A program made the translations under genes and the position numbers. A stretch of DNA of 64,000 nucleotides from Mycobacteriales bacterium (GTDB lineage: Bacteria > Actinomycetota > Actinomycetes > JAFAQI01): positions 11,483 through 75,482 of the forward strand of contig DASSKP010000028.1 of the NCBI GenBank assembly GCA_035690365.1, written 5' to 3'. This document shows, one piece after another, positions 411 through 46,656 of this stretch (its first letter is position 1; the number at the start of each line of letters is the position of its first letter). Below the pieces are notes generated by a model. The model did not search any database and was not told the origin of the DNA. It worked only from the letters and a program-made list of their open reading frames with translations.

Positions 411-1283
411 TTGACGCAGGCCGAGCACTCCGCGGGGCTCGCCGCTGAGTGGCGACACTGGTGGGACTACGAGCGCGGTCGGCTCCTCGGCGGAGGCCCT
501 GTCGCGCGCATCAACCAGATCCGCCGCCGGTCCAACGTCCTTTATGAGCTCATCGCCCGCGGGCTCAAGGTGCAGTACCGCGAGTCGTTCCTGGGCTACG
601 CCTGGTCTCTGCTCGAGCCGGCACTGCTCGTCGTCGTCTACTGGCTCGTCTTCGGTCGGGTCGCGCGGTTCGGGATGCCTCACTACCCGCTGTTCATCGC
701 GTCGGCGATCATGCCGTGGATGTTCTTCAACGGCACGCTGTCCCAGGCTGCCAACTCCCTACGCAGCAACTCGGGGCTCGTCCGCACCGTCACGTTGCCG
801 CGGGAGATCTACCCGCTCGCGGCCGTAGGCGAGCAGGGAGCGGAGTACCTCTTCAGCCTTCCGGTCGTCTTCCTCGTGGGTGCGCTGTACGGCGTCATGC
901 CGAGCCGCTACGTCCTGATGCTCCCCCTCGTCATCGTGGTCGAGGTGATCCTCGTGACGGGGCTCGGCCTGATGCTCGCCGCGCTCAACGCCCTCTTGCG
1001 GGACGTCTCGAAGATCCTGCGCGTCTCGCTTCGCGTCCTGTTCTACCTGTCACCGGTGCTCTATCCGTCCACCCGACTGCACGGGGTGGGCGCGAAACTG
1101 TTCCAGCTCAACCCGCTGGTCGGCATCCTTCAGCTGAACCGGGCCGTGTGGTACCCCACCCAGATCCCGGCCGGCACGCTGATGAGTCAGTTCATGATCT
1201 CGATCGCGGGCGCGCTGGTCTTCCTGGTCTTCGGCTGGTGGACGTTCATCACCCTCGAGCGACACGTGCTCAAGGAGCTCTGA
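411..1283 (+). CDS. ABC-2 type polysaccharide/teichoic-acid exporter permease (TagG/Wzm-like)
   Basis: The 290 aa product has the LKVQYRESFLGYAWSLLEP signature of ABC-2 permeases and about 6 hydrophobic segments. It has a TTG start with an upstream GAGGAA and is followed 2 nt later by the ATPase gene. Confidence 0.8.
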   Translation: MTQAEHSAGLAAEWRHWWDYERGRLLGGGPVARINQIRRRSNVLYELIARGLKVQYRESFLGYAWSLLEPALLVVVYWLVFGRVARFGMPHYPLFIASAIMPWMFFNGTLSQAANSLRSNSGLVRTVTLPREIYPLAAVGEQGAEYLFSLPVVFLVGALYGVMPSRYVLMLPLVIVVEVILVTGLGLMLAALNALLRDVSKILRVSLRVLFYLSPVLYPSTRLHGVGAKLFQLNPLVGILQLNRAVWYPTQIPAGTLMSQFMISIAGALVFLVFGWWTFITLERHVLKEL

Positions 1284-1285
1284 GC

Positions 1286-2047
1286 GTGTCCGACGTCATC
1301 ACCGTCTCCAACGTCGGGATCAACTTCGCGTCATCCCGGCGCCGGCGGCTCAGGGTGCAGGACTTCGTGGTGCGTAAGGCCACGATCACCGAACCCAACA
1401 CGTTTTGGGCGCTGCGCAACGTCTCGTTCCGCGTCCGTCAGGGTGAAGCCGTCGGCCTCGTCGGCCGCAACGGGTCGGGCAAGAGCACGTTGCTCCGCGT
1501 CATCGCCGGCGTGCTCCTGCCGGACGAAGGCGACGTGTGGGTGAACGGCGGTGTCGGTGCGATGCTCGAGCTCAACGCCGGCTTCAACCCGGAGCTGACC
1601 GGTCGCGACAACGTCTATCTGCTCGGCTCGCTGCACGGGTTCAGCCGCGAGCAGATCGCCGCGAAGTACAACCGCATCGTCCGATGGGCCCAGCTCGAGG
1701 GCTTCATGAACACGCCCTTGCGGCACTACTCGAGTGGCATGAAGTCCCGTCTCGGATTCTCCGTCGTGACGAGGCTCGAGGAACCGATCCTGCTCGTCGA
1801 CGAGGTCATGGCCGTGGGCGATCGGCAGTTCCGGCGTAAGTCGCACCGCGTGATGGAGCGGCTGCTCACCCAGGGCCGCACCGTGGTGCTGGTCTCGCAC
1901 AACGAGAACGAGCTGCGGCGCTTCTGTGAGCGCGGCATCTATCTCAGAGGCGGCACCAAGGTCGCGGACGGACCGATGGACGAGGTGCTCGAGCAGTACC
2001 AAGCCGACACTGACGTCGACGAGAACGAGGAGGATGACGCGCCGTGA
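1286..2047 (+). CDS. ABC transporter ATP-binding protein (TagH/Wzt-like, short form without a C-terminal carbohydrate-binding domain)
   Basis: It has Walker A GRNGSGKST, the ABC signature YSSGMKSRL and Walker B ILLVDE. The GTG at 1286 lies just after the permease stop. The longer tracked ORF (716..2047) is an out-of-gene N-terminal extension. Confidence 0.9.
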   Translation: MSDVITVSNVGINFASSRRRRLRVQDFVVRKATITEPNTFWALRNVSFRVRQGEAVGLVGRNGSGKSTLLRVIAGVLLPDEGDVWVNGGVGAMLELNAGFNPELTGRDNVYLLGSLHGFSREQIAAKYNRIVRWAQLEGFMNTPLRHYSSGMKSRLGFSVVTRLEEPILLVDEVMAVGDRQFRRKSHRVMERLLTQGRTVVLVSHNENELRRFCERGIYLRGGTKVADGPMDEVLEQYQADTDVDENEEDDAP

Positions 2048-4875: not shown

Positions 4876-4884
4876 AGGCCTGCC

Positions 4885-5874
4885 TTACTTGCCGGTCGAG
4901 ACCAGCTGGTCGATGCGGGCCACGGTCCACTTGACGCCGTTGGCGTCAATCCGTCCGGCGTAGGTGACCGCCGCGGAGTGCACTGCGGTCCGGGCTGCGC
5001 TGAGGACGGCCGAGGACGAGTCGAGACGCCAGTTGTGCTCGGCGTTCTCGTCGAACCAGACCATCGCCTTCGCGCCCACCGAACGCGCCGCGGTGACGCT
5101 CTTCGACACCCAGGTCGGCTTCTCGGAGTCCGTGGTCGCACCGACCTCGGCCACCATCAGCGGCTTGCTCGGGGCGAGGTCGCGGATGGCCTTGACGGTC
5201 GGGGAGAACAGAGCGTACGGCCACGCGAACGGGTGGCTGGCGTCGTCGTAGTTGTAGGCGTCGAAAGCGACCCAGTTGACGTAGGAGTAGCCGGGCCACA
5301 CCGACTTGAGCGGCGTTGCCGTCGAGTAGATGCGGTAGGGGCACCAGATGAACGCGACGTTGTGCGCGCCGGCGTTGCGCATGAGGGTGACGACGTGCCG
5401 CCATGCCGTCCGGAACTGCGAGGCGGTGTTGCTGCCGTAGCCCGGCGAGTAGCTGTGCGACTTCTGGTTCATCTCCGGGAACAGCCGCATGTACATGGGG
5501 TGGCCCCAGGACGCGAAGGTGTGCGCCCACGCGCGCAGCGCGCCGTCGTACTTGCCGGCGTTGATCGCGCTCAGCGTGGCGGACTTCGGCGGCTGCAGGG
5601 TCAGCATCGGCGCTGCCCCCGCATCGCGGATCCAGGTCATGTAGTTGCTGATCGACGTGCGGTGGGTGCTCGTCACGATCCAGGTGTCGAAGTGGTCGAC
5701 GACCCCGGCGTGCATGTTGAGCTCGTTGCCGTCGTGGGTGATCTGGTCTTTCCACGAGTCGGTGAAGCCGAACAGGACCGGGGCGGTGCCCGCGTGAGCG
5801 GCCGTGCCGGAGGTGACCAGGCCGGCGGAGGACGCCGCAAGGGCAGCGGCGGCGGCAAGAAGTCGAAGTCGCAT
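4885..5874 (-). CDS. Secreted glycoside hydrolase, GH26-like (beta-mannanase family fold)
   Basis: The product starts at MRLRLLAAAAALAASSAG, a signal peptide. The motifs MYMRLFPEMNQ (acid/base Glu context), WPGYSYVNWVAFDAYN and MVAEVG (nucleophile Glu context) fit the GH26 pattern. The part of the tracked ORF upstream of this Met looks non-coding. Confidence 0.65.
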   Translation of the reverse strand: MRLRLLAAAAALAASSAGLVTSGTAAHAGTAPVLFGFTDSWKDQITHDGNELNMHAGVVDHFDTWIVTSTHRTSISNYMTWIRDAGAAPMLTLQPPKSATLSAINAGKYDGALRAWAHTFASWGHPMYMRLFPEMNQKSHSYSPGYGSNTASQFRTAWRHVVTLMRNAGAHNVAFIWCPYRIYSTATPLKSVWPGYSYVNWVAFDAYNYDDASHPFAWPYALFSPTVKAIRDLAPSKPLMVAEVGATTDSEKPTWVSKSVTAARSVGAKAMVWFDENAEHNWRLDSSSAVLSAARTAVHSAAVTYAGRIDANGVKWTVARIDQLVSTGK

Positions 5875-5955
5875 ATCTTTTCCTTCGGCGGCAGGGAAGG
5901 GCGGATGTAGTGCCAATGGCGCAACGTCGATGTCACCTCGCCCTACGCAGGATCG

Positions 5956-5986
5956 CCCGAATTCTTCCCGAATCCGCCTATTCGGG
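5956..5986. promoter_or_regulatory. Three copies of the heptamer CCCGAAT (two direct, one inverted) in a divergent promoter region
   Basis: CCCGAAT occurs at 5956-5962 and 5967-5973, and ATTCGGG at 5980-5986. The element sits between the divergent starts at 5874 (-) and 6041 (+) and is locally AT-richer than the surrounding sequence. Confidence 0.3.
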
Positions 5987-6040
5987 CGGCCCGGCGGCCG
6001 GGACCGCCCGGCTGCACACCGCGTGTGATGAGGTTGGCGC

Positions 6041-6772
6041 ATGATCGGCCTTGTCCTCGCCGCCGGCGCCGGCCGGCGTCTGGCCCCCCTGACCGACGAC
6101 CTGCCGAAGACCCTCCTCCCTGTCGCCGAGGACACCACCATCCTCGACATCGCGTTGCACAACCTCGCGCAGGCCGGGCTCTCGGACGTGGTCGTGGTGA
6201 CCGGCTTCGCCGCGCACCAGATCGACAGCCGCGTGGAAGCGCTGCAGCGCCGCCACGGAGTGCGCCTGCGCACGGTCTTCAACGACAAGGCGACCGTCTG
6301 GAACAACGCCTACTCGCTGTGGCTCGCGCGTGAGTTCTTCGCGGAGGGTGTGCTGCTGTGCAACGGCGACACCGTCCATCCCGACTCGGTGGAGAAGACG
6401 CTGCTCGCCCTCGACCCCCGCGAGATCCTTCTCGCGATGGACGACGTCAAGCCCCTCGCCGAGGAAGAGATGAAGGTCGTGCTCGGTCCGGCCGGCACCA
6501 TGGTGCGGATCAACAAGGCTCTCGACCCTGCGCAGGTCGCGGGGGAGTACATCGGCGTCACGCGCATCGCGCCGGCCGCCGCCGACGGGCTCGCTGACGC
6601 GCTCGAGGCGACCTGGCGTCGCGACACCGGGCTCTACTACGAGGACGGCTACCAGGAGTATGCCGACCGCGGTGGCCTGGTCGAGGTCGCCCCGATCGGC
6701 TCGGTCGCCTGGGTCGAGGTCGACAACCACGACGACCTGGCCAAGGCGCGGGAGATCGCGTGCCACTACTAG
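6041..6772 (+). CDS. Nucleotidyltransferase (LicC / IPCT-like alcohol-phosphate cytidylyltransferase)
   Basis: The N-terminal sequence GLVLAAGAGRRLAPLTDDLPKTLLPV is an NTP-transferase loop. NNAYSLW, NGDTV and the C-terminal VEVDNHDDLAKA resemble the LicC and inositol-1-P cytidylyltransferase type. Confidence 0.8.
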   Translation: MIGLVLAAGAGRRLAPLTDDLPKTLLPVAEDTTILDIALHNLAQAGLSDVVVVTGFAAHQIDSRVEALQRRHGVRLRTVFNDKATVWNNAYSLWLAREFFAEGVLLCNGDTVHPDSVEKTLLALDPREILLAMDDVKPLAEEEMKVVLGPAGTMVRINKALDPAQVAGEYIGVTRIAPAAADGLADALEATWRRDTGLYYEDGYQEYADRGGLVEVAPIGSVAWVEVDNHDDLAKAREIACHY

Positions 6773-7815
6773 CGCGCATGATCGCGTCGCCTCTCACGGT
6801 CGACGTGCGGCGCGGCGCCATCACGGGCCTCCGCCAGCTGCTGGCCGAGGGCGGCATCTCCGCCGGTGGCAAGGTGGCCGTGCTCGTCGGCCCGGGCCAG
6901 GGCGAGGCGATCGCCGAGGTGTTGGCGCCGACCCTCAGCGACGCCGACGTGCTGCCGGTCGAGGACGCGTCGGTGGACGCCGCACGTGACCTGGCGGTCA
7001 AGCTGCGACAGTCGTCGTACGACGCCGTGGTGGGCATCGGTGGCGGCCGCACCCTCGACGTCGCGAAGTACACCGCGAGCCTGACCGGGCTGCCGATGGT
7101 CGCCGTGGCGACCAACCTGTCGCACGACGGCATCGCCTCGCCCGTCGCCTCTCTCGAGCACGAGGGGCGCAAGGGGTCCTACGGCGTGCACATCCCCTTG
7201 GCCGTGTTCGTCGACCTCGACTACGTGCAGCGAGCGCCGCAGCGGATGGTCCGCTCCGGCATCGGCGATGTCGTGAGCAACCTCTCGGCGCTCGCGGACT
7301 GGCAGCTGGCCGCCGACGAGCGCGGGGAGCAGATCGACGGGTTGGCGGCGGCGATGGCCCGCGCCGCCGCGGACGCCGTCGTCTTCCGCCCCGACTCGAT
7401 CGACTCGGTCGACTTCCTCGTGACGCTCGCCGAGGCGCTGATCCTCTCCGGGCTCGCGATGGCCGTGGCCGGCAGCAGCCGGCCGTGCAGCGGCGGTGAC
7501 CACGAGATCCTGCACGCGATCGACCAGCTCTATCCCGGGGTGAGCAACCACGGCGAGCTCGCAGGGGTGGGGGCGTTGTTCTGCGCGTTCCTGCGCGGCG
7601 ACGACCACCAGCAGGAGCTGATCGACAACTGTCTACGCCGGCACGAGCTGCCGAGGCTGCCGGCCGACATCACGCTGACCACCGAGCAGTTCACGGCAGC
7701 GGTCGTGCACGCACCCACGACGCGACCGGAGCGGTTCACCATCCTCGAGCACCTCGATCTCTCGGAGGCAGACGTCCGCAAGCGGGTCGATGACTATGTC
7801 GCAGCCTTCGGCTGA
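6760..7815 (+). CDS. sn-glycerol-1-phosphate dehydrogenase-like enzyme (EgsA/AraM family, iron-ADH superfamily)
   Basis: It has GIGGGRTLDVAKY (NAD-binding glycine motif) and ATNLSHDGIASP, which matches the SHDGIASP motif of G1P dehydrogenases. The GTG at 6760 overlaps the upstream gene; an alternative ATG lies at 6778. Confidence 0.7.
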   Translation: MPLLARMIASPLTVDVRRGAITGLRQLLAEGGISAGGKVAVLVGPGQGEAIAEVLAPTLSDADVLPVEDASVDAARDLAVKLRQSSYDAVVGIGGGRTLDVAKYTASLTGLPMVAVATNLSHDGIASPVASLEHEGRKGSYGVHIPLAVFVDLDYVQRAPQRMVRSGIGDVVSNLSALADWQLAADERGEQIDGLAAAMARAAADAVVFRPDSIDSVDFLVTLAEALILSGLAMAVAGSSRPCSGGDHEILHAIDQLYPGVSNHGELAGVGALFCAFLRGDDHQQELIDNCLRRHELPRLPADITLTTEQFTAAVVHAPTTRPERFTILEHLDLSEADVRKRVDDYVAAFG

Positions 7816-8587
7816 GCGCGCGCGGCCCTCTCTCGAGGAGCTGCGCGCGATCGTTCATCCGCCGAAACTCGTCACCGACGTCAGCCGCGAGCACTGGATG
7901 GGCCGGCTCTACATGCGCCGCGTCTCACTTCGGTTCACGCGTTGGTTGATCCCGACCCGCGCGACGCCCGACGGACTCACCTGGCTGATGGTCGTGAGCG
8001 GGATGGCCGCAGCGCTCGTGCTGACCATCCCGTCGGCCTGGTCGGACTTCGTCGCCGTGCTGCTCATCCAGCTCCAGGTGCTGTGTGACTGCTCGGACGG
8101 TGAGCTCGCACGCTGGCGTTCCTGGAGCAGTGCCCGTGGCATCTACCTCGACCGCTTCGGCCACTACACCACCGATGCGGCGGTGGTGTGCGCCGTCGGT
8201 GTGCATGCGGACGGCGGACTCGGGTCGATCGGCGGCTGGACGACGCTGGGACTGCTCGGTGCGGTGCTCGTGCTGGTCAGCCGCTCGGAGACCGACCTCG
8301 TGCACGTCGCCCGTGCTTACGTCGGGCTGCCCCGGTTCGAGCCGGGCGCGGTGGCCCCGCAGGTCTCCGGCATCCGCCGGCTGCGTCGGCTCGCCTACGC
8401 CGTCCCCATCAACCGTTTGCTGCTCGCCTGGGACCTGTCGGTCGCGCTCATCGTCGTCGCCGTCGTGGACCTCATCGCCGGGTCGACGGTGGGACATCAG
8501 GTCCTTGCGGTGATCCTCGCCGTCGTCGGCGTGCTGGTCTGTTTGCTGCACCTCGTGACGATCCTGACGTCGGCTCGGTTGCGATGA
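7790..8587 (+). CDS. CDP-alcohol phosphatidyltransferase family membrane protein
   Basis: The full family motif D-x2-D-G-x2-A-R...G-x3-D-x3-D is present in DCSDGELARWRSWSSARGIYLDRFGHYTTD. The product has multiple TM segments, and its start overlaps the end of the upstream gene. Confidence 0.85.
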   Translation: MTMSQPSAERARPSLEELRAIVHPPKLVTDVSREHWMGRLYMRRVSLRFTRWLIPTRATPDGLTWLMVVSGMAAALVLTIPSAWSDFVAVLLIQLQVLCDCSDGELARWRSWSSARGIYLDRFGHYTTDAAVVCAVGVHADGGLGSIGGWTTLGLLGAVLVLVSRSETDLVHVARAYVGLPRFEPGAVAPQVSGIRRLRRLAYAVPINRLLLAWDLSVALIVVAVVDLIAGSTVGHQVLAVILAVVGVLVCLLHLVTILTSARLR

Positions 8588-9444
8588 CCGACATCGGTTG
8601 CGTCGTTCTGACGATGGGCAACCGACCGGAGCTGCTGGACCGGGCGCTGCAGTCGATCCTGTCCCAGCGCGGCGTGTCGGTCGACGTCGTCGTCGTCGGC
8701 AACGGCTGGCAGCCGACAGGGTTGCCGCCGCAGGTGCGTGGCGTCGGCCTACCGCGCAACGTCGGCATCCCCGCGGGCCGCAACGCCGGCGTGCCGCATG
8801 TCGCCGGCGAGCTGCTGTTCTTCCTCGACGACGACGCCGCGCTTTCGGGCGACGACGTTCTTGCCAAGGGCGCCCGGCTTCTTGCCGAACGTCGGGACAT
8901 CGGAGTCGTCCAGCTGCGGCCGGTCGACCCGGTGACCGGACGGACCCCGCGCTCGTTCGTGCCCCGGCTCCGCGTCGGCGACCCTGCGCGTGACAGCGAC
9001 CTGACCGCGCTCTGGGAAGGAGCGGTCCTCGTGCGCCGCGAGGTGCTCGCGGCTGCCGGCGGCTGGCCGGAGGTGTACTTCTACCAGCACGAGGGCGTCG
9101 AGCTCGCCTGGCGCGTCATCGACGAGGGCCACCGCGTCCACTACGCCGGTGACCTGGTCTGCTGGCACGACGCGAAGCAGCCGGGTCGCGACCCGTCCTA
9201 CTTCCGCATGCAGGGGCGCAACCGGGTCTGGCTCGCCCGGCGCAACCTGCCGCTCCCGCTCGCGGCGGCGTACCTGTGCACCTGGCTTGCCCTGACCGTC
9301 GCTCGCGTGCGCGGTCGAGCGGCGCTGGGGCAGGCGTTGCGCGGTTGGGTCGACGGGTTTCGCGAACCGTGCGGTGAGCGGCGACCGGTCAGCTGGCGCG
9401 CGGCCTGGCGGATGACGCGCGCGGGTCGGCCGCCGGTCATCTAG
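8584..9444 (+). CDS. GT2 family glycosyltransferase
   Basis: The ATG at 8584 overlaps the upstream stop as ATGA. The product has the N-terminal GT-A pattern VVLTMGNRPELL...VVVVGNG, the acidic motif FLDDDA and RNxG. Confidence 0.8.
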   Translation: MTDIGCVVLTMGNRPELLDRALQSILSQRGVSVDVVVVGNGWQPTGLPPQVRGVGLPRNVGIPAGRNAGVPHVAGELLFFLDDDAALSGDDVLAKGARLLAERRDIGVVQLRPVDPVTGRTPRSFVPRLRVGDPARDSDLTALWEGAVLVRREVLAAAGGWPEVYFYQHEGVELAWRVIDEGHRVHYAGDLVCWHDAKQPGRDPSYFRMQGRNRVWLARRNLPLPLAAAYLCTWLALTVARVRGRAALGQALRGWVDGFREPCGERRPVSWRAAWRMTRAGRPPVI

Positions 9445-9455
9445 CCGCCGGTCGA

Positions 9456-10661
9456 CTAGCGGAAGACGCCGGTGTGGCCGAGTGAGTAGCGGCCGGGCTG
9501 CGGATAGACGCAGAGTCCGTGCGGGCTGGAGCCGACCGGGATCTTCGCGAGAAGAGCACCGGTGCGGGCGTTGAGCGCATAGACGACGCTGTTGTATCGG
9601 CCGGACAACCAGAGCACCTTGCCGTCGGCGGACAGGCCGCCCATGTCCGGGCTGCCGCCGCCGGGGATGTGCCAGGTGTGGACGACCTTGCGGGTCCGCA
9701 GGTCGATGACGCTAACGCTTCCCTCGCGCCGGTTCGTCACGTAGAGCCAGGTCGACGAACGGTTGACGTAGAGCCCGTGCGCGCCTACGCCCGTGTGCAG
9801 GAAGCCGATCTCGCGGAAGCGCTTCGGGTCGATGATCTGCACGCCGTTGGCGTACTGGTCGGCGACGTACATCACCTTGCCGTCGGGCGAGGTCTTGACG
9901 TCCTGCGGCGAGCCGCCTTCCTTGACGTGAATCATGCCGACGACCTTCTGCTTCGCAACGTCGAGCTTGAGCAGCTTGCCGGAGAACTCGCACGAGAACA
10001 CGGCATAGCGACCGTCGGCGGTGAAGTCGGCGTGGTCGATGCCCAGGCAGTCGACCGGGAGGCTGTGCACCAGCTGCATCGTCTTGGCGTTGAGGAAGTC
10101 GAGCCGCTGCAACGCCTCCGCGACAACGATGGCGTACTTGCCGTCCGGAGTGAAGTACATGTTGTAGGGGTCGGTCACCGGCAGAGTGGCGCCCAGCTTG
10201 CCGGTGCGCGGGTTGATGACCGTGACACTGTTGCCCTGGTCGTTGAGCACGTAGAGCCGACGCATGTCGTAGGACGGCGTGACGTGCTGCGGCAGCCGGC
10301 CGACCTGGTAGTGGCCCACGATCTGGAACGTCTTCTGGCTGATGACGTCGAGGGTGCCCGACTCGCTGTTGGGCACGTAGACGAGCGCCGGGTCGTGGCG
10401 CACCACGGGGGAGAGCCGTCCGGGGCGGTCAGCGGCGTAGATGTCCGTCGCGGACAGCGGGGCCGGCATGCCCGGCAGCAGCCCCCGGCGCGACACGGGC
10501 GGCCGCGTGGCATGCGGCGTGGCGCTCGTGGACGGCGCCGTCACCGCGGCCGATGCGGACGGGGACGCGCCCGTGGTCACCCGCTCGGACTGACCGCTCG
10601 TCCCGCTACAGGCCGTGAGGGCCAGGGCGGCAACGGCGAGACCGGCGGGGAAGCGACGCAT
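9456..10661 (-). CDS. Lipoprotein with YVTN/YncE-like beta-propeller repeats
   Basis: The signal peptide carries a lipobox (LALTAC). It is followed by a Ser/Thr/Pro-rich linker and then repeated segments of about 40 aa of the type (V/Y)..N..s.tVsViD. Confidence 0.65.
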   Translation of the reverse strand: MRRFPAGLAVAALALTACSGTSGQSERVTTGASPSASAAVTAPSTSATPHATRPPVSRRGLLPGMPAPLSATDIYAADRPGRLSPVVRHDPALVYVPNSESGTLDVISQKTFQIVGHYQVGRLPQHVTPSYDMRRLYVLNDQGNSVTVINPRTGKLGATLPVTDPYNMYFTPDGKYAIVVAEALQRLDFLNAKTMQLVHSLPVDCLGIDHADFTADGRYAVFSCEFSGKLLKLDVAKQKVVGMIHVKEGGSPQDVKTSPDGKVMYVADQYANGVQIIDPKRFREIGFLHTGVGAHGLYVNRSSTWLYVTNRREGSVSVIDLRTRKVVHTWHIPGGGSPDMGGLSADGKVLWLSGRYNSVVYALNARTGALLAKIPVGSSPHGLCVYPQPGRYSLGHTGVFR

Positions 10662-10697
10662 CGGAGCCAGCCTACGCGTGGATTCTTAAGGTCTCGT

Positions 10698-10931
10698 TCA
10701 ACCCGCGGGTCGTGAGCTCGCCACCCAGCGACCGGGACCGTGGTCGAGGGGGTGGCGCAGCATCGCGCGTCGATCGGCCCAGCCGGACCGTCGCGGCGCA
10801 GCCTGGTCGGTGGGGGCGTGGACAGAACTCAAGGCGACGACGAGAGCCGCGAGCGCCTCGGGCCCCGGATCGCCCCCGTGGACGACGCGCAGCAGCGGCA
10901 CGTCGGCGTCACTGTCCCCGGCGGTGCTCAC
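10698..10931 (-). CDS. Acyl-CoA carboxylase epsilon subunit
   Basis: The 77 aa product ([22 protein letters not shown]) is typical of AccE/PccE. Its GTG start overlaps the stop of the beta-subunit gene as GTGA. Confidence 0.7.
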
Positions 10932-12523
10932 AGCGGGATGTTCCCGTGCTTCTTCGGCGGGAGCGACTCGCGCTTCGTGCGCAGCAACCTGAGGGCGCGG
11001 ATCAGCTCACGTCGGGTCGTCGACGGACGGATGACCGCGTCGACGTAGCCGCGTTCGGCGGCGATGTAGGGGTTGGCGAAGTGGTCTTCGTAGTCGGCGA
11101 CGAGCTCCTTGCGCCGAGCGTCGGGATCGTCGGCGTCCGCAAGCTCTCTGCGGTAGAGGATGTTGGCCGCGCCCTGCGCGCCCATCACCGCGATCTCCGC
11201 CGTCGGCCACGCGAGGTTGACGTCGGCCCGGAGGTGCTTCGAGCCCATGACGTCGTACGCCCCGCCGTAGGCCTTGCGCGTGATGACGGTGACCTTCGGC
11301 ACCGTCGCCTCGGCGTAGGCGTAGAGCAGCTTCGCGCCGCGCCGGATGATGCCGCCCCACTCCTGCGCCGTCCCGGGCAGGAACCCGGGTACGTCGACAA
11401 AGGTCACGATCGGGATGTTGAAGGCGTCACACGTGCGGACGAACCTTGCCGCCTTCTCCGAGGCGTCGATGTCCAGCGTGCCGGCGAACGACATCGGCTG
11501 GTTGGCGACGCAGCCCACGCTGCGACCGTCGATGCGGGCGAAGCCACAGACGATGTTCGGCGCGAACAACGCGTGCACCTCGAGGAACTCACCATCGTCG
11601 ACGACGTGCTCGATGACGGTCTTGATGTCGTAGGGCTGGTTCGACGAGTCCGGGATGAACGTGTCGAGGAACGCGTCGTCGGTCAGCCCGTTGAGGTCCT
11701 CGTCGTCGTAGGCCGGCGGGTCGTCCAGGTTGTTGCTCGGCAGGTAGGACAGCAACGCGCGGGTCAGCTCGAGGCAGTCGGTCTCGTCGTCGGCGACGAA
11801 GTGGGCGACACCGGACTTCGTGTTGTGCGTCCGCGCGCCGCCGAGCTCCTCGAACGTCACGTCCTCACCGGTCACGGTCTTGATGACATCGGGACCGGTG
11901 ATGAACATGTGCGAGGACTCGTCGACCATCAGGATGAAGTCGGTGATCGCCGGCGAGTAGACGGCGCCGCCGGCGCACGGCCCCATCACCAGGGAGATCT
12001 GCGGGACGACACCGCTCGCCATGACGTTGCGGTAGAAGATCTCGGCGTAGAGGCCGAGCGCGACGACGCCTTCCTGGATGCGGGCGCCACCGGAGTCGTT
12101 GATGCCGACGAGTGGGCAGCCCATCTTCATCGCCAGGTCCATGACCTTGACGATCTTCTCGCCGAAGACCTCGCCGAGGCTTCCGCCGAAGACCGTGAAG
12201 TCCTGGCTGAACACGCACACCGGGCGGCCGTCGACCGTCCCGTGCCCCGTGATCACGCCGTCGCCGTAGGGCCGCTTCTCCTCGACACCGAAGCCGTGCG
12301 CGCGGTGCCGGGCGAGCGCGTCGAGCTCGACGAAGGAGCCGGGATCGAGCAGGGCCTCGATCCGCTCGCGCGCCGTCATCCGCCCGGCCTCATGCCGCTT
12401 GTCGACGGCCTGCTGCGACCCGGCGTGCGCTGCCTCGTCGAGCTTGTGGTCGAGCTGCGCGAGCTTTCCCGCGGTGGTGTGCAGGTCGGGGTGCGCCGGC
12501 GTGTCCTGCGGCTCCGCTGTCAT
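10928..12523 (-). CDS. pccB: Acyl-CoA (propionyl-CoA) carboxylase carboxyltransferase beta subunit
   Basis: The 531 aa product matches the PccB/AccD5 type along its full length ([47 protein letters not shown]). The epsilon subunit gene lies immediately downstream. Confidence 0.9.
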
Positions 12524-12540: not shown

Positions 12541-14178
12541 ATGCCCGCGGTGTCGGTCGTCGTCATCTGCTTCAACGACGCTGAGCACCTCGGCACGGCC
12601 GTCCGGTCGGCGACGGCACAGACGCTCCGTGACCTCGAGGTCGTCGTCGTGGACGACGGCTCGGACGACGCCACCCCGGACCTCGCCGCCGCTCTCGCAG
12701 CAGCCGATCCACGCGTCCGCTATCACCGGCTGGAGACGAACAGCGGCGGCTGCAGCCGTCCGCGCAACGTCGGCATGTCGCTCGCGACCGGCGACTACGT
12801 CACGTTCCTCGACAGCGACGACGTGCTGCCGCGCCTCGCGTGCACTCGCCTGCTCCGCGCCGCCCGGCGGACCGACGCGGACATCGTCTGCGGCAGATGG
12901 GTGCGCCGCCACCACCGGCCGACCCGCTACATCGAGGCGCACCGCGAGCTCTACGCGCGTGCGGCTCTGGTCGACGGGATCGCCGAGCGGCCGCAGCAGC
13001 TGTTCGACACACCCGCGCCGGGCAAGCTCTACCGGCGCAGCTTCCTCGTCGAGCAGCAGCTGACATTTCCCGAGGGGCTGCTCTACGAGGACCTGCTCTT
13101 CACGACGGAGGCCTATGTCAGCGCCCGGCGGATCGCCGTCGTGCCCGACCTCGTCTACGTCTGGAACGTGCGTCGCGACGCCGAGACGCCGTCGATCACC
13201 AACCGCGCGGAGCTGCGCAACTGGCGTGACCGCTTCGAGGTGCATCGCCGCATCGACGCCCATCTCGCTCGGGCCGGCGTGCCGCTCGCCGTCGTACGAG
13301 CCAAGCAGGCGAAGTTCCTGTCGGCGGACTTCACGGTGTTCCTCCGCGACCTGAGAAGTCGCCGCACCGACGAGCGGTCGGCCCTTCTCGAGCTCGCACG
13401 GGCCTACCTGTCCGGCATCGACGAGCAGAGCTGGCCGCAACAGCCGGTCGGTCCGCGGGTCGCGGCTGTGCTCGCTGCCCGAGGTGACCTTCCCGGCGTG
13501 CTGGCGGCCGCGGACTTCGCGGTCACCGGCGGCCTGATGGCCCGGCTCAGCGCCCAGGGCGACCGGCTGCGCTGGACGGCCGACCACGCCGACGCGGGAG
13601 ACGCACTCGACGTCACCACGACCGGCCTACTGACCACCGACTTCGCGTCGACGCCGTTCCTGGCGACGTTTGAGCATGCCCGGTGGGAGGGGGACCGCCT
13701 GTCGTTCGACGGCCGCGTGTACGACGTCCTGCACCGGCTCGCTCCGGCGCAGTCGCTCACCGGCCGGTTGCTGGTGCGCGGCCGGATCGGCGGAGTGCTC
13801 TGGTCGGCTCCGCTGGTGCTGTCGGACGCCGGCGGCGACGTCAGGTTCAGCGGCCGGGTCGACCTTGCGGCGCTGGGCAGGACGCTCGGCCGGCCGACCG
13901 TCGGTCATGAGCTGCGCCTGCTCGTCGAGCTGCGCCGGGGGGACCAGCGGGTCGTCCGCCCGCTGACCGGGCGCGATGCCGAACTCCCGCCCGCCGACCA
14001 TCAGCTGCCGACCCCCTGGCGCCGGCTGGTGGGTGACCGGGTCCGGCTGGCCGAGGTCAACGGCCGGCTCGTCCTGCAGCTCACCGCGTTGCCGCAGATC
14101 ACCGACCGCGCGATCGCGGCGGGTTCGTGGGCGCGTTACGTCGCCCAGCAGGCCGCGGGGCGCCTCCACCGGTCGTAA
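12541..14178 (+). CDS. GT2 glycosyltransferase with a long C-terminal extension of unknown function
   Basis: The N-terminus [20 protein letters not shown]...[10 protein letters not shown] and the motif LDSDD are GT2 hallmarks. The N-terminal half resembles the GT2 at 33337..34449. Confidence 0.75.
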
Positions 14179-22340: not shown

Positions 22341-23516
22341 TCAGCCGAGCAGCTCGTCGAACAGACGCTCCCAGCGTTGCGCGACCGCATCCACCTGCAG
22401 GGAGGCAACGCTGCGCCGTGCTGCGGACCCCAACGCGGTCCGCAGCTCAGGGTTGCTGATGACTCGCTCCAGGCCGTCGGCGAGCGCCCCGGCGTCGCCG
22501 GGCGGGACCACGATGCCGTCGACACCGTCGTCGATGATCTGGCGGATTCCCGGTGCGCAGTCGACGGCGACGCAGGGCACTCCGCAGGCCATGGCTTCGA
22601 GCAGCACGAGGGGCAGGCCTTCACGGTCCGAGGAGAGCGCCAGGGCCGACGCTCCCATGAGTGCCGCGGCGACGTCGTCGGTCGGACCCATCAGCTGCAC
22701 ACCGTCCTGGAGGTGTGCCCGGGCGATCTCCTGCTCGAGATCGGCGTGCAGGCTGCCTTCGCCGTAGATCCGGAGCTGCCACTGCGGGTGGCGGTCCCGC
22801 AAGAGCCGCCACGCTGCGACCAGCAGGTCGTAGCGCTTCTCGGGCTCGAGGCGGCCGATCGCGACGACGACGGGAGCGGTGAGCTGCGAGACCCGGTCCG
22901 GCCACAGCGGCAGCGGGTTGGGCATGACCTGCACGTTCGGCAGGCCCTCCTGTCGCCACTTGTCGGCGTCGGCGTCCGTGAGGAGGAGGACGGCGTCGAG
23001 GTCGCGGTAGAGCCGGCGGACGCGTTCGTACCGTGACGGGCCGGTCGTTCCCGGCTGCAGCACGTGCGAGGCCTCGAACGACTCGTGGCTCATGCCGACG
23101 ACCTTCAGGTGCCGCGTGTCGGCGTCCGCGACCCAGCGCATCGCCCAGACCTGGGCGACGATCACGATTCCGCTGTCGACCTCCGCGAAGAGTTGTTGCA
23201 GCCGCTTCACGTGCCGGCGGTGCAGAACGCGGCGCAACACCTCGCGGGCGACCTCCGACGGATGGATGTAGTCGGGAAAGCTCCGTGGTTCCCAGGGGGC
23301 TGGTTCGCCGCGGCCGAGTGTCACGGTGACGTAACCGGCGCCCGGCCGCAGCTTGCGCGAGCCGGCACCTGGCCCGACGCCGATCAGCTCGACGCGATGT
23401 CCGCGCGCCGCCAGGCCGGCGGCGACGGCATGCACGACGCGTTGCACACCGCCGATCTCCTCGACGTTGTTGGCGACGATGAACACGTTGCGCCGCTTGT
23501 CGGCCCCGCCGTTCAC
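22341..23516 (-). CDS. GT4 family glycosyltransferase
   Basis: It has the GT-B C-terminal motifs GRLEPEKRYDLL and SDREGLPLVLLEAMACGVPCVA. The GTG start at 23516 overlaps the stop of the upstream TagF-like gene as GTGA. The tracked ORF extension to 23939 is Arg/Pro-rich and looks non-coding. Confidence 0.85.
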   Translation of the reverse strand: MNGGADKRRNVFIVANNVEEIGGVQRVVHAVAAGLAARGHRVELIGVGPGAGSRKLRPGAGYVTVTLGRGEPAPWEPRSFPDYIHPSEVAREVLRRVLHRRHVKRLQQLFAEVDSGIVIVAQVWAMRWVADADTRHLKVVGMSHESFEASHVLQPGTTGPSRYERVRRLYRDLDAVLLLTDADADKWRQEGLPNVQVMPNPLPLWPDRVSQLTAPVVVAIGRLEPEKRYDLLVAAWRLLRDRHPQWQLRIYGEGSLHADLEQEIARAHLQDGVQLMGPTDDVAAALMGASALALSSDREGLPLVLLEAMACGVPCVAVDCAPGIRQIIDDGVDGIVVPPGDAGALADGLERVISNPELRTALGSAARRSVASLQVDAVAQRWERLFDELLG

Positions 23517-24721
23517 CGGGCGGTTCCGAAGACCGAGTGACGCACGCGCTCGGCGGCATCGCCGTGCTCGAAGCCGCAGAAGCGGCGGACGAAGGCGTCG
23601 TAACGCTCGCTGTAGGAGTCGTGTGCAGCCTGTGGTTGACGTAACCAGCCGACCACCTCGTCCATGTCCTGCACGACGGGGCCCGGCGCGACAACCTGCA
23701 GGTCGAAGTAGGAACCCCGCCGCCGGTTGTAGACCTCCAGGTCGGGCGCGTAGAAGAGCATCGGCCGCCGGAGCAGCGCGAAGTCGAACATCACCGACGA
23801 GTAGTCCGTGATGAGCGCGTCCGCTGCCAGCAGGAGCTCGGTGACGTCGGCGTGCGTCGAGACGTCGCGAGCGATCTCGGGGAAGGCGTCGGTCTCGGCC
23901 GGCCGGTCGAGGTAGTGGGCGCGCACGAGGATGAGGCATCGCTCGCCGATGTCTGCTGCGATGCGCGCGAGGTCGAGCCGCGCGGTGCCGTCCGCTCCGC
24001 GATCCCAGTCGCGGAACGTCGGGGCGTAGAGCACGACCAGCCGGTCGGTGGGCAGGCCCAGACTCCGGCGATGCTCGGCCTTCCGCGACTGGACGTCCGG
24101 CGCGAGCAGCGGGTCGTTGCGCGGATACCCCGTCCGCAACACCTGCGCCTTGTGCCGGAACGCCGCCGCGAACGTCTGCTCGGCGGTCTCGCTCTGGACG
24201 CAGAGGTGCGTCCAGCGTCCGACGGCCGCGGCGAACGCCTGCCGGCGGTCGTGACCTGCGTCGCGAAGCTCCGGTTGGTCGAAGCCCATGGTCTTGTACG
24301 CCGACCCGTGCCAGGTCTGCAGGTAGGTCGTTGCCCGCCTGCGCCGCGCGATCGCGGGGAAGCCCTGGTCGTCCACCCAGAACTCGGCACGCGCCAGCTC
24401 GAGGAGGTAGCGCCAGCTGCCGCGGCGTACGAGGACGGCGTCGGACGGAAAACCGTTGGGGTCGTCGAGATACGACCAGACGACCCTTCGCCGGTCACCG
24501 GACGCGCGCAGCGCGAGATACAGGTATTTCGGGCTGTCCGTGAAAGCGCGCCCCAGCCCGCTTTCGAACACCGCGGACCCGCGACGCATCGGGAGCCGCA
24601 TGAGGACGGCTCGGTACGTGATCGCCTTGACCGAGCGGCTCGACGGGAGGCGCCGGATGCGACGCATCAGGCGGGCCGGAGCGGAGCCGATGGGCGTCGC
24701 CCGGGCAGTCCGCACGCGCAC
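23513..24721 (-). CDS. CDP-glycerol (or CDP-alditol) glycerophosphotransferase, TagB/TagF family
   Basis: The Glyphos_transf hallmarks are present: YLQTWHGSAYKTMG, VLYAPTFRD and ALITDYSSVMFDFALLRRPMLFYAPDLEVY...RGSYFD. Confidence 0.85.
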   Translation of the reverse strand: MRVRTARATPIGSAPARLMRRIRRLPSSRSVKAITYRAVLMRLPMRRGSAVFESGLGRAFTDSPKYLYLALRASGDRRRVVWSYLDDPNGFPSDAVLVRRGSWRYLLELARAEFWVDDQGFPAIARRRRATTYLQTWHGSAYKTMGFDQPELRDAGHDRRQAFAAAVGRWTHLCVQSETAEQTFAAAFRHKAQVLRTGYPRNDPLLAPDVQSRKAEHRRSLGLPTDRLVVLYAPTFRDWDRGADGTARLDLARIAADIGERCLILVRAHYLDRPAETDAFPEIARDVSTHADVTELLLAADALITDYSSVMFDFALLRRPMLFYAPDLEVYNRRRGSYFDLQVVAPGPVVQDMDEVVGWLRQPQAAHDSYSERYDAFVRRFCGFEHGDAAERVRHSVFGTAR

Positions 24722-30093: not shown

Positions 30094-32307
30094 TTGACCA
30101 CCGCGCGGCCCGTGGGCGACTCCGAGGACGCAGTGGTGCTGTCCATGGTGTTCGCCGTACACGGCGACCAGGCCTATCTCGACGGTGCCGTTCGCTCGGT
30201 CCTCGAGCATCCGGGTCGAGACGTCGAGGTCGTCGTGGTCGACAACGGGTCGACCGACCACGTGCCCGAAGTCCTCGCGGAGCTGAGCCAGCTCGACGAC
30301 CGGATCGTGCCGATTCGGCTCGACGAAGCGGTGCCGCAAGGCACCGCGCGCCAGGTCGGCCTCGAGGCGGCTCGCGGTCGCTATGTCTGGTTCATGGACG
30401 CGACCGACCTCCTCCAGCCCGGCGCGGTCGCGGCGGTGGTCCGGTTGGTCGACCGCCGGTCGCCCGACGTGGCGGTGCTCGACTTCGTGACCGGGGGGTC
30501 GCTGGCCCTGCTGCCCAGCCCCCACAGCCCGCTCGTGCGCCGGATCGCTGCCGCGGGGTCCGTGTCCGTGGAGGCGATGCCGGAGCTGCTCGACCTCGCT
30601 CCCTGGTGGTGGAGCCTGGTGGTCAAGAAGGCGCTGCTCGACGAGTGGGGGATCGACCAGCGCGGCCAGCGCTCGGATGCCGCGTTCGGCTACTGCGCTC
30701 TGCTCGCGGCGGGTGAGGTGACGGCAACGGCATCCGCGCTGTACCGGCGACGTCGGCCGTTCAACACGGTGAACTCCCCGGCGGTGACCGGCGACGAGAA
30801 GGACCTCCTCGACGCGGTTGCCACCGTCTTCAGCTTTCTCTCCGCGCATCCGGTCATCGCGGACCGGCGCCGGTTCGCGACCGGGCGGATCGTCGGTCTG
30901 GCCACGCAGCGACTGAACCGCCTCCCGGCGTCGCGACGCCGTGATTTCGCCGAGCGACTGATCGAGGTCAGCCGGCGGCAGATCGGCCCCACAGACGCGC
31001 TGCCGCCGGGTCGGGTCACGGCTCTCCGGATGCGGCTGGTGCGAGGCGGGCACCGCACGGCGTACCTCGCGGTCGAAGCCGCGCTCCGCATCGCGCGCAG
31101 GCTGGTCCTGGCTTCCGGGCGCTTTCGGGCCCGTCTTGCGCCGCGGCTCGCGCGGGTCGTCGAACGGCTGCGGCTCCTGGAGTACTCCCTGCACCGCCGG
31201 TTGCCGTTGCGCCGCGACCTCGCCGTCTTCGCTGCGTACTGGTACCGCAGCTACGCCTGCAACCCCCGCGCCATCTACGAGAAGCTGCGCGAGCTGGCTC
31301 CAGAGGTCCGCGGCGTGTGGGTGGTGCTCCCTGGCGTCAAGGTCCCCGACGGCGTCGACTCCGTCGTCGTCGGCACGCGCGCCTACTACCGCCTCCTCGC
31401 CCGGGCGACCTACTTCGTCAACAACGTGGGCTTCCCGGACCACTGGAAGAAGCGTCGCGGCACTGTGCTTCTGCACACCCATCACGGGACGCCGTTGAAG
31501 AAGATGGGCCTCGACCAGTACGACGTCGGCGGCCCGCTGCAACGCCCGCTGCCGGCGAAGCACCTGTCGCGTTGGCAGCGCTGGGACTACAGCCTGTCGT
31601 CCAACCTGTTGTCGACGTTGGTCTGGGAGCGCGTCTACCCGGCGGCCTACCGCACGTTGGAGTACGGCTACCCCCGCAACGACCGGCTCGTCACCGCCGG
31701 CGCAGACGAGGCCGCGCCGATCAAGGCGGCCCTCGGCATCGAGGCGGACCGCAAGGTGCTTCTTTATGCGCCGACGCACCGCGAGTACGAACGCACGTTG
31801 CGGCAGATTCTCGATCCGGTGGCGTTGGCCCGCTCGCTCGGTGACGATTGGGTGATCCTGTCGCGAGCGCACTACTACAACGCCACGGGCCAGCCGATCG
31901 CGAAGCTGGCCGGCGGCAGGGTGGTCGACGTCACGTCGTACGAGTCGGTCGAGGAGCTGTGCCTCGCTGCTGACGTGCTGGTCACCGACTACTCGTCCAT
32001 CATGTTCGACTACGCCGTCCTCGACCGGCCGATCCTCATCTACGCGCCGGACTGGGAGATCTACCAGCTGCTGCGCGGCACCTACTTCGACTTGATGAAC
32101 GAGGCGCCCGGCGTCGTGTGCCGGACCCAGGCCGAGCTCGCCGAGGCGCTGACGTCCGGTGCCTACTGCGGTGACGTCGCCACCAAAGCGCTGGAGCTGT
32201 TCCGCAATCGGTTCTGTGCATGGGAGGACGGGATGGCCGCAGAGCGGGTCGTTCGGCGGCTCTTCCTGGGCGAGCAGCCACCTCTACCTCTGCGTCCGCC
32301 CGCGTGA
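30094..32307 (+). CDS. Bifunctional GT2 glycosyltransferase / TagF-family glycerophosphotransferase
   Basis: The N-terminal part is GT2 (VVVVDNGSTD, FMDATD). The C-terminal part is Glyphos_transf (LLHTHHGTPLKKMG, LLYAPTHREY, VLVTDYSSIMFDYAVLDRPILIYAPDWEIY..RGTYFD). It has a TTG start with a strong upstream GGAGGAGGA. Confidence 0.85.
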   Translation: MTTARPVGDSEDAVVLSMVFAVHGDQAYLDGAVRSVLEHPGRDVEVVVVDNGSTDHVPEVLAELSQLDDRIVPIRLDEAVPQGTARQVGLEAARGRYVWFMDATDLLQPGAVAAVVRLVDRRSPDVAVLDFVTGGSLALLPSPHSPLVRRIAAAGSVSVEAMPELLDLAPWWWSLVVKKALLDEWGIDQRGQRSDAAFGYCALLAAGEVTATASALYRRRRPFNTVNSPAVTGDEKDLLDAVATVFSFLSAHPVIADRRRFATGRIVGLATQRLNRLPASRRRDFAERLIEVSRRQIGPTDALPPGRVTALRMRLVRGGHRTAYLAVEAALRIARRLVLASGRFRARLAPRLARVVERLRLLEYSLHRRLPLRRDLAVFAAYWYRSYACNPRAIYEKLRELAPEVRGVWVVLPGVKVPDGVDSVVVGTRAYYRLLARATYFVNNVGFPDHWKKRRGTVLLHTHHGTPLKKMGLDQYDVGGPLQRPLPAKHLSRWQRWDYSLSSNLLSTLVWERVYPAAYRTLEYGYPRNDRLVTAGADEAAPIKAALGIEADRKVLLYAPTHREYERTLRQILDPVALARSLGDDWVILSRAHYYNATGQPIAKLAGGRVVDVTSYESVEELCLAADVLVTDYSSIMFDYAVLDRPILIYAPDWEIYQLLRGTYFDLMNEAPGVVCRTQAELAEALTSGAYCGDVATKALELFRNRFCAWEDGMAAERVVRRLFLGEQPPLPLRPPA

Positions 32308-46634: not shown

Positions 46635-46656
46635 GGTCCGGCGCCGCCTCCTCGTT

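Follow-up and report, generated by a model that had tools for sequence, protein, structure and literature searches.

The 64,000-nt stretch analysed here (the window), positions 11,483 to 75,482 of contig DASSKP010000028.1 in the assembly GCA_035690365.1 of a Mycobacteriales bacterium, has a G+C content of about 70% and carries at 6041-9444 an overlapping four-gene operon that, on balance, we read as a module making an activated glycerol phosphate and transferring it into a teichoic-acid-type envelope polymer. The operon pairs a nucleotidyltransferase with a dehydrogenase of the sn-glycerol-1-phosphate dehydrogenase (G1PDH) branch, followed by a CDP-alcohol phosphotransferase (CDP-AP) and a family 2 glycosyltransferase (GT2), as follows.

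5875..6040 (no strand): divergent intergenic region of 166 nt upstream of the operon, presumed promoter region
6041..6772 (+): gene 1, LicC/IPCT-type nucleotidyltransferase, 243 aa (Pfam NTP_transferase)
6760..7815 (+): gene 2, G1PDH-branch dehydrogenase, 351 aa from GTG 6760 or 345 aa from ATG 6778 (Pfam Fe-ADH_2)
7790..8587 (+): gene 3, atypical six-helix CDP-AP, 265 aa (Pfam CDP-OH_P_transf)
8087..8164 (+): CDP-AP signature within gene 3, D100-x2-D103-G-x2-A-R-x8-G117-x3-D121-x3-H125, reading DCSDGELARWRSWSSARGIYLDRFGH
8584..9444 (+): gene 4, GT2 glycosyltransferase, 286 aa (Pfam Glycos_transf_2)

The four overlapping genes had been proposed in a preliminary description of this DNA, and the open reading frames, their junctions and their codon usage all bear them out. 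The G+C content at third codon positions is 0.87-0.93 across the four reading frames, which is a coding-type codon-position pattern. The GTG 6760 start of gene 2 lies 13 nt inside gene 1 (stop TAG 6770-6772), the ATG 7790 start of gene 3 lies 26 nt inside gene 2 (stop TGA 7813-7815), and genes 3 and 4 share an ATGA overlap at 8584-8587. For gene 2, the GTG start is favoured because homologues conserve the PLLAR stretch at the N-terminus. High-GC operons commonly contain such overlaps, which are in themselves unremarkable. Considering that the divergent 166-nt region precedes the operon and a convergent gene follows it (9456-10661, reverse strand), the operon is a self-contained four-gene unit. 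A promoter and terminator scan of 4700-10900 returned nothing exceeding the shuffled background, no sigma-70 consensus was found in 5875..6040, and no Rfam family matched in the whole window. A reverse-strand reading frame at 4885-6306 that apparently overlaps gene 1 was rejected as an over-long call, its real start lying at about 5874, at the signal peptide MRLRLL. The product of this gene, which diverges from the operon, is secreted and glycoside-hydrolase-like, with a weak match to GH26.

The product of gene 2 belongs to the dehydroquinate synthase-like/Fe-ADH_2 fold (Pfam Fe-ADH_2, 114 bits). Among the NCBIfam models, that for G1PDH scored 250 bits, against 56 for the glycerol dehydrogenase GldA and 25 for the dehydroquinate synthase AroB. 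When a family profile built from 16 gene 2 homologues was searched against all solved structures in the PDB, the best matches were 3ce9 (202 bits), the Methanocaldococcus jannaschii G1PDH (197 bits) and the Pyrobaculum calidifontis G1PDH (174 bits), followed by Bacillus subtilis AraM (103 bits), with every glycerol dehydrogenase at or below 59 bits; the G1PDH profile scores are three to four times those of GldA. The AlphaFold model of the protein (predicted local distance difference test score, pLDDT, 93) superimposes on the M. jannaschii G1PDH bound to dihydroxyacetone phosphate (DHAP), 4rgq, with a template-modelling (TM) score of 0.83-0.87, and ranks 3ce9 ahead of this structure, the P. calidifontis G1PDH, AraM and GldA, in that order.

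The strings GIGGGRTLDVAKY and NLSHDGIASP, which the preliminary description had singled out as hallmarks of the EgsA/AraM branch, are both present on direct reading. The motifs SHDGIASP, GDVVSN, SSRPCSGGDHEILHA and HGE are common to the gene 2 product and characterised G1PDHs, and the metal-site Asp/His/His, together with S-x-DGIASP, SSRPxSG-x-H-x3-H and HGE, aligns with the M. jannaschii and P. calidifontis enzymes and AraM. The metal-site and motif residues, whose roles are described in the literature on the G1PDH family, are invariant in the 16 homologues. The Arg of SSRPxSG is present in gene 2, in both archaeal G1PDHs and in AraM but missing in 3ce9, and may be taken as a hint, not proof, that the gene 2 enzyme acts on a phosphorylated substrate. 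Profile scores and fold ranking, on which this placement relies rather than on a tree, agree in supporting a position with the EgsA/AraM-type G1PDH branch and not with GldA or dehydroquinate synthases, as had been suggested, and G1PDH is the predicted activity. Published G1PDH trees put Actinobacteria in a bacterial clan (PMC6431249). In databases the protein is named 'iron-containing alcohol dehydrogenase family protein' by NCBI and G1PDH by JGI.

Gene 1 encodes a nucleotidyltransferase with the N-terminal LAAGxGxRL loop (Pfam NTP_transferase, 50.6 bits). Among solved structures it is closest to LicC, the CTP:phosphocholine cytidylyltransferase (1jyk, 58.8 bits), and 4jd0 (49.9 bits), which we take to be the Thermotoga maritima inositol-1-phosphate cytidylyltransferase; the phosphonate cytidylyltransferase 6pd1 scored 33.6 bits, and sugar-1-phosphate enzymes rank below. 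In the bifunctional IPCT/DIPPS model NF041135 (NCBIfam), it matches the N-terminal half, in agreement with its earlier description as LicC/IPCT-like. A homologue search with gene 1 returned no fusions and only automatic names, such as 'choline kinase' and 'sugar phosphate nucleotidyltransferase'. We propose that it is a CTP:glycerol-1-phosphate cytidylyltransferase, the one support for these substrates being its invariant pairing with the G1PDH gene.

Gene 3 encodes a CDP-AP (Pfam CDP-OH_P_transf, 26.5 bits) whose model (pLDDT 90) has six membrane helices. By sequence (36 bits) and by fold (TM score 0.55-0.59) its best solved relative is AF2299 of Archaeoglobus fulgidus, followed in fold by IPCT-DIPPS and then by phosphatidylinositol-phosphate (PIP) synthases, and it matches the IPCT/DIPPS model NF041135 and the structure 4mnd. 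The CDP-alcohol donors used by AF2299 and DIPPS are soluble, and the former binds CDP-glycerol (PMC4634129). The motif P(D/N)xx(T/S) of the first transmembrane helix (TM1) reads TPDGLT in gene 3. The preliminary description had credited the protein with a complete CDP-AP motif (D1xxD2GxxAR...GxxxD3xxxD4), and this part of it does not hold: the sequence runs D100-CS-D103-G-EL-A-R-x8-G117-IYL-D121-RFG-H125, so that D4, the last of the eight signature residues, is His125. D4 counts among the eight residues described as 'absolutely conserved' and has been proposed as the catalytic base; its replacement by Asn in a PIP synthase nearly abolished activity and left substrate binding unaffected (PMC4634129).

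The substitution extends to the whole subfamily. Among 67 syntenic orthologues of gene 3, D4 is His in 49 and Ala in 18, the latter all from Nonomuraea. Of 269 database relatives, among them representatives of 148 clusters at E up to 1e-30, 214 have His at this position, five Ala, one Pro and one Thr, and 48, mostly fragments, have no motif; Asp was found in none of the 221 motif-bearing sequences. The other signature residues (D1, D2, D3, G, A and R), the TM1 motif PDxxT and many Arg residues are conserved across the subfamily. The role of this His/Ala variant is the least certain part of our scheme, and three options present themselves: His may act as the base; the acceptor may be a phosphate that needs no base; or the protein may be a non-catalytic partner of a canonical CDP-AP.

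Apparent G1PDH-CDP-AP and CDP-AP-GT2 fusions among the database sequences (P0335, P0359, P0365) look like frameshifted or read-through calls across the overlaps and were not counted. Another database representative, P0264 (591 aa), has a 340-aa N-terminal domain fused to a His-variant CDP-AP; this domain gives no functional clue, since it matches no Pfam family. The automatic database name of gene 3 is 'phosphatidylglycerophosphate synthase'.

Gene 4 encodes a GT2 (Pfam Glycos_transf_2, 42 bits) whose C-terminal part includes a hydrophobic segment. The one relative among solved structures, and a weak match, is PglI, an enzyme that uses an undecaprenyl-diphosphate-linked glycan.

To place the operon in context, we scanned one genome per species, which gave at least 583 confirmed relatives of gene 2, and took the best 80 with 10-kb flanks. 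These 80 loci come from Frankiales, Sporichthyaceae, Streptosporangiales, Micromonospora, Actinoplanes, Solirubrobacterales and Gaiellales. In every one of them, the nucleotidyltransferase gene lies directly upstream of the G1PDH gene, overlapping or nearly abutting it. A CDP-AP signature was detected in 75 loci, the remaining five being cut contigs of 2.6-13 kb. A canonical CDP-AP (Asp at D4) accompanies a His variant in 45 loci and an Ala variant in 18; seven loci have a canonical CDP-AP only, four have the His variant only, as in the window, and one has three signatures, with Asp, Gly and His at D4. A GT2 of the gene 4 type accompanies the His/Ala variant in 63 loci, often with a 4-nt overlap (for example, in L004, L007 and L052).

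The canonical CDP-AP is usually a protein of 500-620 aa, in which a weak MobA-like transferase domain at the N-terminus precedes the CDP-AP domain; DUF5941 is either fused to it or encoded adjacently. Its gene lies upstream of the nucleotidyltransferase-G1PDH pair in L022 (6847-8445), L004 (12754-14628), L052 (6854-8626) and 58 other loci; neither this long form nor DUF5941 was found in the 64-kb window. In Micromonospora and Actinoplanes, which are among the canonical-only loci (L059, L061, L072, L073, L075 and L076; at about 11020-11750), a canonical CDP-AP of 241 aa follows the G1PDH gene directly and the GT2 is absent, an arrangement that marks a minimal three-gene form of the system.

Conserved neighbours of the cassette include LCP ligases, another GT2 and genes for a TagG/TagH-type ABC transporter. 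A TarI-TarJ-like fusion (IspD with a short-chain dehydrogenase) was found in 44 loci and a membrane TagF-like protein in 34. TagG/TagH orthologues lie within the cassette in L003, L004, L007 and L016, and after it in L023, L044, L048, L052 and L079. In L004 and L007, a single co-directional run encodes the nucleotidyltransferase, G1PDH, TagG, TagH, long CDP-AP, short CDP-AP, GT2, a GT2-TagF fusion and a family 4 glycosyltransferase (GT4), with most junctions overlapping or nearly abutting and two gaps of 50-150 nt. The comparative context ties the cassette to TagGH, TagF and LCP genes. The cassette is present in at least several hundred species, antibiotic producers among them.

The window holds the same families as the run in L004 and L007, but dispersed:

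411..1283 (+): TagG-like ABC-2 permease (Pfam ABC2_membrane)
1286..2047 (+): TagH-like ATPase (Pfam ABC_tran; NCBIfam teichoic-acid export ATPase, 176 and 167 bits)
12541..14178 (+): GT2 glycosyltransferase, 545 aa (Pfam; 42% identity in tblastn to genes of L004 and L007)
22341..23516 (-): GT4 glycosyltransferase, adjoining the TarF-like gene
23513..24721 (-): TarF-like CDP-glycerol glycerophosphotransferase (Pfam Glyphos_transf, 327 bits; NCBIfam TarF 220 versus TarL 106 bits)
30094..32307 (+): GT2-TagF fusion, 737 aa, second CDP-glycerol-type transferase (Glyphos_transf, 387 bits, and Glycos_transf_2; TarF 201 bits)

The domain orthologous to the GT2 of 12541..14178 is fused to TagF in L004 and L007, where the combination of GT2 and Glyphos_transf in one protein was confirmed, and orthologues of the genes at 22341..24721 (44-48% identity) are co-directional with the cassette in the same two loci. 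Both TagF-type proteins of the window have TarF, a transferase of glycerol phosphate, as their best match, with the ribitol-phosphate polymerase TarL scoring lower. The TarF-like and GT4 enzymes of 22341..24721 are likely users of CDP-glycerol, and TagG/TagH at 411..2047 is the probable exporter of the product.

The enzyme expected to supply CDP-glycerol in such a setting, TagD (PF01467), was detected neither in the window, by Pfam scans of all called genes, by tblastn with a B. subtilis TagD sequence or by motif scans, nor in any of the 80 related loci; this negative rests mainly on the Pfam scans. No TarI or other candidate CDP-polyol synthase was found in the window either. The earlier observation of two TagF-type enzymes with no accompanying TagD is thus confirmed. 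Pfam scans of the window likewise found no inositol-1-phosphate synthase, the G1PDH gene being in the equivalent place. Given that TarF-like enzymes demand CDP-glycerol while no TagD was found in the window or the 80 loci, these results support the operon as a source of activated glycerol phosphate.

Several further genes of the window deserve mention. Four sulfotransferase-family genes (24826-25833, +; 25818-27719, -; 27796-28848, +; 32304-33332, +) are interleaved with the two TagF-type genes, and the polymer made by the window's genes may be sulfated, which would be unusual for one of the teichoic-acid type. The TagH-like gene overlaps by 4 nt (GTGA) a UPF0182 gene at 2044-4875, encoding a conserved actinobacterial membrane protein of 943 aa; this overlap hints that UPF0182 is co-translated with the exporter. 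A large DUF6077 membrane protein (19753-21804, +) is encoded beside a GtrA-family protein (21811-22293, -), and a second large one (37326-39410, -) overlaps a Ppm/AglJ-like polyprenyl-phosphate glycosyltransferase (39407-40348, -). These two sets resemble extracytoplasmic glycosylation modules, composed of a lipid-sugar synthase, a flippase and a membrane transferase, and would suggest a role for DUF6077. Menaquinone-type genes, encoding a thiamine pyrophosphate enzyme, an enolase-like protein, a UbiA prenyltransferase and an AMP-binding protein, occupy 43146-47916.

From the family placements, the motif variant and the conserved neighbourhood, we infer substrates, products, stereochemistry and acceptor as follows. 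The G1PDH-branch enzyme would reduce DHAP to sn-glycerol-1-phosphate (G1P), as expected from its family membership. The nucleotidyltransferase, judging from the strict gene pairing and its similarity to LicC and IPCT, would then join G1P to CTP to give an sn-1-configured CDP-glycerol, the mirror image of the TagD product. At the membrane face, CDP-APs would next transfer the glycerol phosphate of CDP-glycerol to an acceptor, with the coupled GT2 adding or preparing a sugar just before or after; in the window, the only nearby enzyme of this kind is the variant with His at D4. The dispersed TarF-like enzymes could use CDP-glycerol to extend a glycerol-phosphate-containing chain. Finally, the genomic context suggests that the TagG/TagH-type ABC transporter exports the product, which would be joined to peptidoglycan by an LCP ligase or stay lipid-anchored in the manner of lipoteichoic acid.

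Several points weigh against this pathway. The 250 bits of gene 2 fall below the curated equivalog cut-off of 413 bits (NF002022), and the solved structure closest to it, 3ce9, comes from structural genomics and bears the label glycerol dehydrogenase. We know of no assay for 3ce9, and the actinobacterial families in question have, to our knowledge, no member of established enzyme activity. A TagD gene may exist outside the window, in another part of the genome, and the acceptance of sn-1 CDP-glycerol by TagF-type enzymes is only presumed. Only 37 of the 80 loci have a TagF-type gene within 10 kb, so the tightest partners of the nucleotidyltransferase-G1PDH pair are the CDP-APs and not TagF. 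Of the 75 signature-bearing loci, 71 include a canonical CDP-AP, but this 64-kb window has none; its only CDP-AP is one without the residue proposed as catalytic base. Because this base is missing, and because all 18 Nonomuraea orthologues have Ala in its place, the gene 3 protein may be non-catalytic.

The last point leads to the rival that survives best. The His/Ala variant might be a non-catalytic paralogue that binds a CDP-alcohol and partners with or regulates the canonical long CDP-AP, which would leave the operon of the window incomplete without a gene elsewhere. The genus-wide Ala and the usual co-occurrence with a canonical paralogue (64 of 75 loci) give real weight to this option; D4 is never Asp in the subfamily and Ala in 18 of the 67 orthologues, and solved CDP-APs are dimers (PMC4634129). 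Set against this is the strict conservation of D1, D2, D3, G, A, R, the TM1 motif and many other residues, the presence of the His variant alone within 10 kb in four loci and in the window, and the possibility that His serves as a base. We consider a non-catalytic role rather doubtful, though it deserves serious attention.

The product might also be a lipid rather than a wall polymer, made by a Kennedy-type transfer in which the CDP-AP moves glycerol phosphate to diacylglycerol or a glycolipid. This would yield phosphatidylglycerol directly or a glycerophospho-glycolipid anchor or primer of lipoteichoic acid, and partly overlaps the wall-polymer pathway proposed above. In its favour, G1P has the same sn-1 configuration as the phosphatidylglycerol head group and the lipoteichoic acid units (PMC7086022); lipoteichoic acid is produced in Actinobacteria, which lack LtaS, by a route that is an open question (PMC3196553); and the gene 3 CDP-AP and gene 4 GT2 are membrane proteins. 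However, CDP-APs with lipid acceptors (CPT/EPT) have three to four extra helices (PMC4634129), whereas gene 3 has the six-helix form linked to soluble acceptors, and the exporter, LCP and TagF neighbours indicate a polymer. A lipid product is therefore unlikely in our view.

That same six-helix form, typical of enzymes with soluble acceptors (PMC4634129), would suit a soluble phosphodiester solute of the DIPPS kind, made from CDP-glycerol and a polyol phosphate, for example diglycerol phosphate or a glycosylated relative. The layout of the operon is that of a split IPCT/DIPPS in which a G1P-forming enzyme replaces inositol-phosphate synthase, and the many Arg residues conserved in the gene 3 subfamily would suit an anionic acceptor. 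Yet hundreds of mesophilic soil actinomycetes have conserved the cassette, in surroundings of TagGH exporters, LCP ligases, TagF-type enzymes and glycosyltransferases, and no phosphatase gene is conserved beside it, which makes a solute quite improbable.

A further alternative is that the dehydrogenase does not form G1P and that genes 1 and 2 are a pair like the pneumococcal Gtp1 and Gtp2, producing CDP-2-glycerol, or act on another small polyol or sugar phosphate. The CDP-2-glycerol pathway pairs an Fe-ADH-family reductase (Gtp1) with a LicC-like transferase. The label of 3ce9 and the sub-threshold G1PDH score are compatible with such a pair, but Pfam scans found no Gtp3-type kinase in the window or among the conserved neighbours of the loci, the SSRPxSG Arg sets gene 2 with the two archaeal G1PDHs and AraM and apart from 3ce9, and the margin of the G1PDH profiles over GldA also argues against it, so that we regard this alternative as very unlikely.

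Lastly, G1P for archaeal-type ether lipids by an AraM/PcrB-like route, as proposed for Streptomyces on gene content, is hardly credible here: Coleman et al. 2019 report homologues of G1PDH, GGGPS and DGGGPS in Streptomyces, and AraM feeds PcrB in B. subtilis (both in PMC6431249), but the context supports this poorly, since no GGGPS/PcrB gene occurs in the window or among the conserved neighbours, the window's only UbiA-family gene sits among menaquinone genes, and the invariant partner of the G1PDH gene is a nucleotidyltransferase and not a prenyltransferase.

The proposed pathway for a glycerol-phosphate polymer can be taken further. We offer as a possibility, and tentatively, that many actinomycetes make CDP-glycerol from archaeal-type G1P and, within the cell, build from it polymers with a stereochemistry thought exclusive to LtaS-made lipoteichoic acid, primed by a new CDP-AP subfamily that lacks D4. 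Priming could proceed with His as the base, or by attack of a phosphate acceptor such as polyprenyl phosphate, which would give a pyrophosphate-linked glycerol primer. Wall teichoic acid derives from the CDP-sn-3-glycerol made by TagD, and lipoteichoic acid has sn-1 glycerol phosphate, which comes from phosphatidylglycerol through LtaS. If true, a cytoplasmic CDP-glycerol route based on G1P would break this stereochemical split between wall and lipoteichoic acids. It would answer the open question of poly(glycerol phosphate) in Actinobacteria without LtaS (PMC3196553), and it would re-interpret the actinobacterial G1PDH homologues that studies of the 'lipid divide' have read as possible archaeal-lipid genes (PMC6431249). 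In its extended form, the proposal would thus explain both lipoteichoic acid in LtaS-less Actinobacteria and the purpose of bacterial G1PDH homologues. The D4-less subfamily is also a useful test of the catalytic mechanism proposed for the CDP-AP family, and the pipeline names 'choline kinase', 'phosphatidylglycerophosphate synthase' and 'iron-containing alcohol dehydrogenase family protein' likely mislead metabolic reconstructions.

The searchable full-text literature yielded no study of the cassette by biochemistry or genetics. A synteny survey from 2026 places it, with tagG, tagH and 'araM', among the uncharacterised orphan clusters of the Streptomyces pan-proteome (PMC13118837).

Among known systems, the bifunctional IPCT/DIPPS of A. 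fulgidus and Thermococcales, which makes di-myo-inositol-phosphate, shares with the operon a LicC/IPCT-type cytidylyltransferase and a six-helix CDP-AP that uses a soluble CDP-alcohol donor, and the archaeal logic noted in the preliminary description is recognisable in genes 1 and 3, which resemble a split IPCT/DIPPS (model NF041135; structures 4jd0 and 4mnd). Unlike in IPCT/DIPPS, the genes of the operon are separate, a G1PDH-type gene replaces inositol-1-phosphate synthase, and the CDP-AP lacks the fourth Asp; and whereas IPCT/DIPPS serves solute synthesis, the operon stands in a context of envelope polymer genes. AF2299, the nearest relative of gene 3, was solved with CDP-glycerol, its donor (PMC4634129). 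The long CDP-AP of the related loci resembles AF2299 and IPCT-DIPPS in placing a transferase-like domain at the N-terminus, ahead of a membrane domain. The canonical fourth Asp is present in AF2299, whereas the gene 3 protein has His and no cytoplasmic N-terminal domain.

AraM of B. subtilis, a proven DHAP-to-G1P enzyme of the bacterial G1PDH family, has its fold and metal-site motifs in common with gene 2, which nevertheless resembles archaeal EgsA (197 bits) more closely than AraM (103 bits) and has a nucleotidyltransferase, rather than the prenyltransferase PcrB, as its constant partner. In the pneumococcal Gtp1-Gtp3 and LicA/LicC (CDP-choline) systems, a LicC-like transferase activates a small phospho-alcohol for decoration of a surface polymer, as proposed here; those systems need a kinase (Gtp3 or LicA), and none is present in the window.

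With the Firmicute TagD/TarD-TagB/TagF-TagGH pathway for wall teichoic acid, the window shares TarF-like transferases and a TagG/TagH-type exporter, and the related loci share LCP ligases and a TarIJ-like enzyme. Unlike that pathway, the actinobacterial system yielded no TagD-family enzyme in the window or the 80 loci, its candidate CDP-glycerol source having a different, LicC-like fold, and its cassette adds CDP-AP enzymes that have no Firmicute counterpart. Since this LicC-like source is fed by a G1PDH, a CDP-glycerol of the opposite enantiomer to that of TagD is expected. All four families, and the overall logic of activating a polyol phosphate and then transferring it, are already known; what would be new is where the CDP-glycerol comes from (G1P) and hence its handedness, the use of CDP-APs in a teichoic-type pathway and a CDP-AP subfamily without the fourth Asp.

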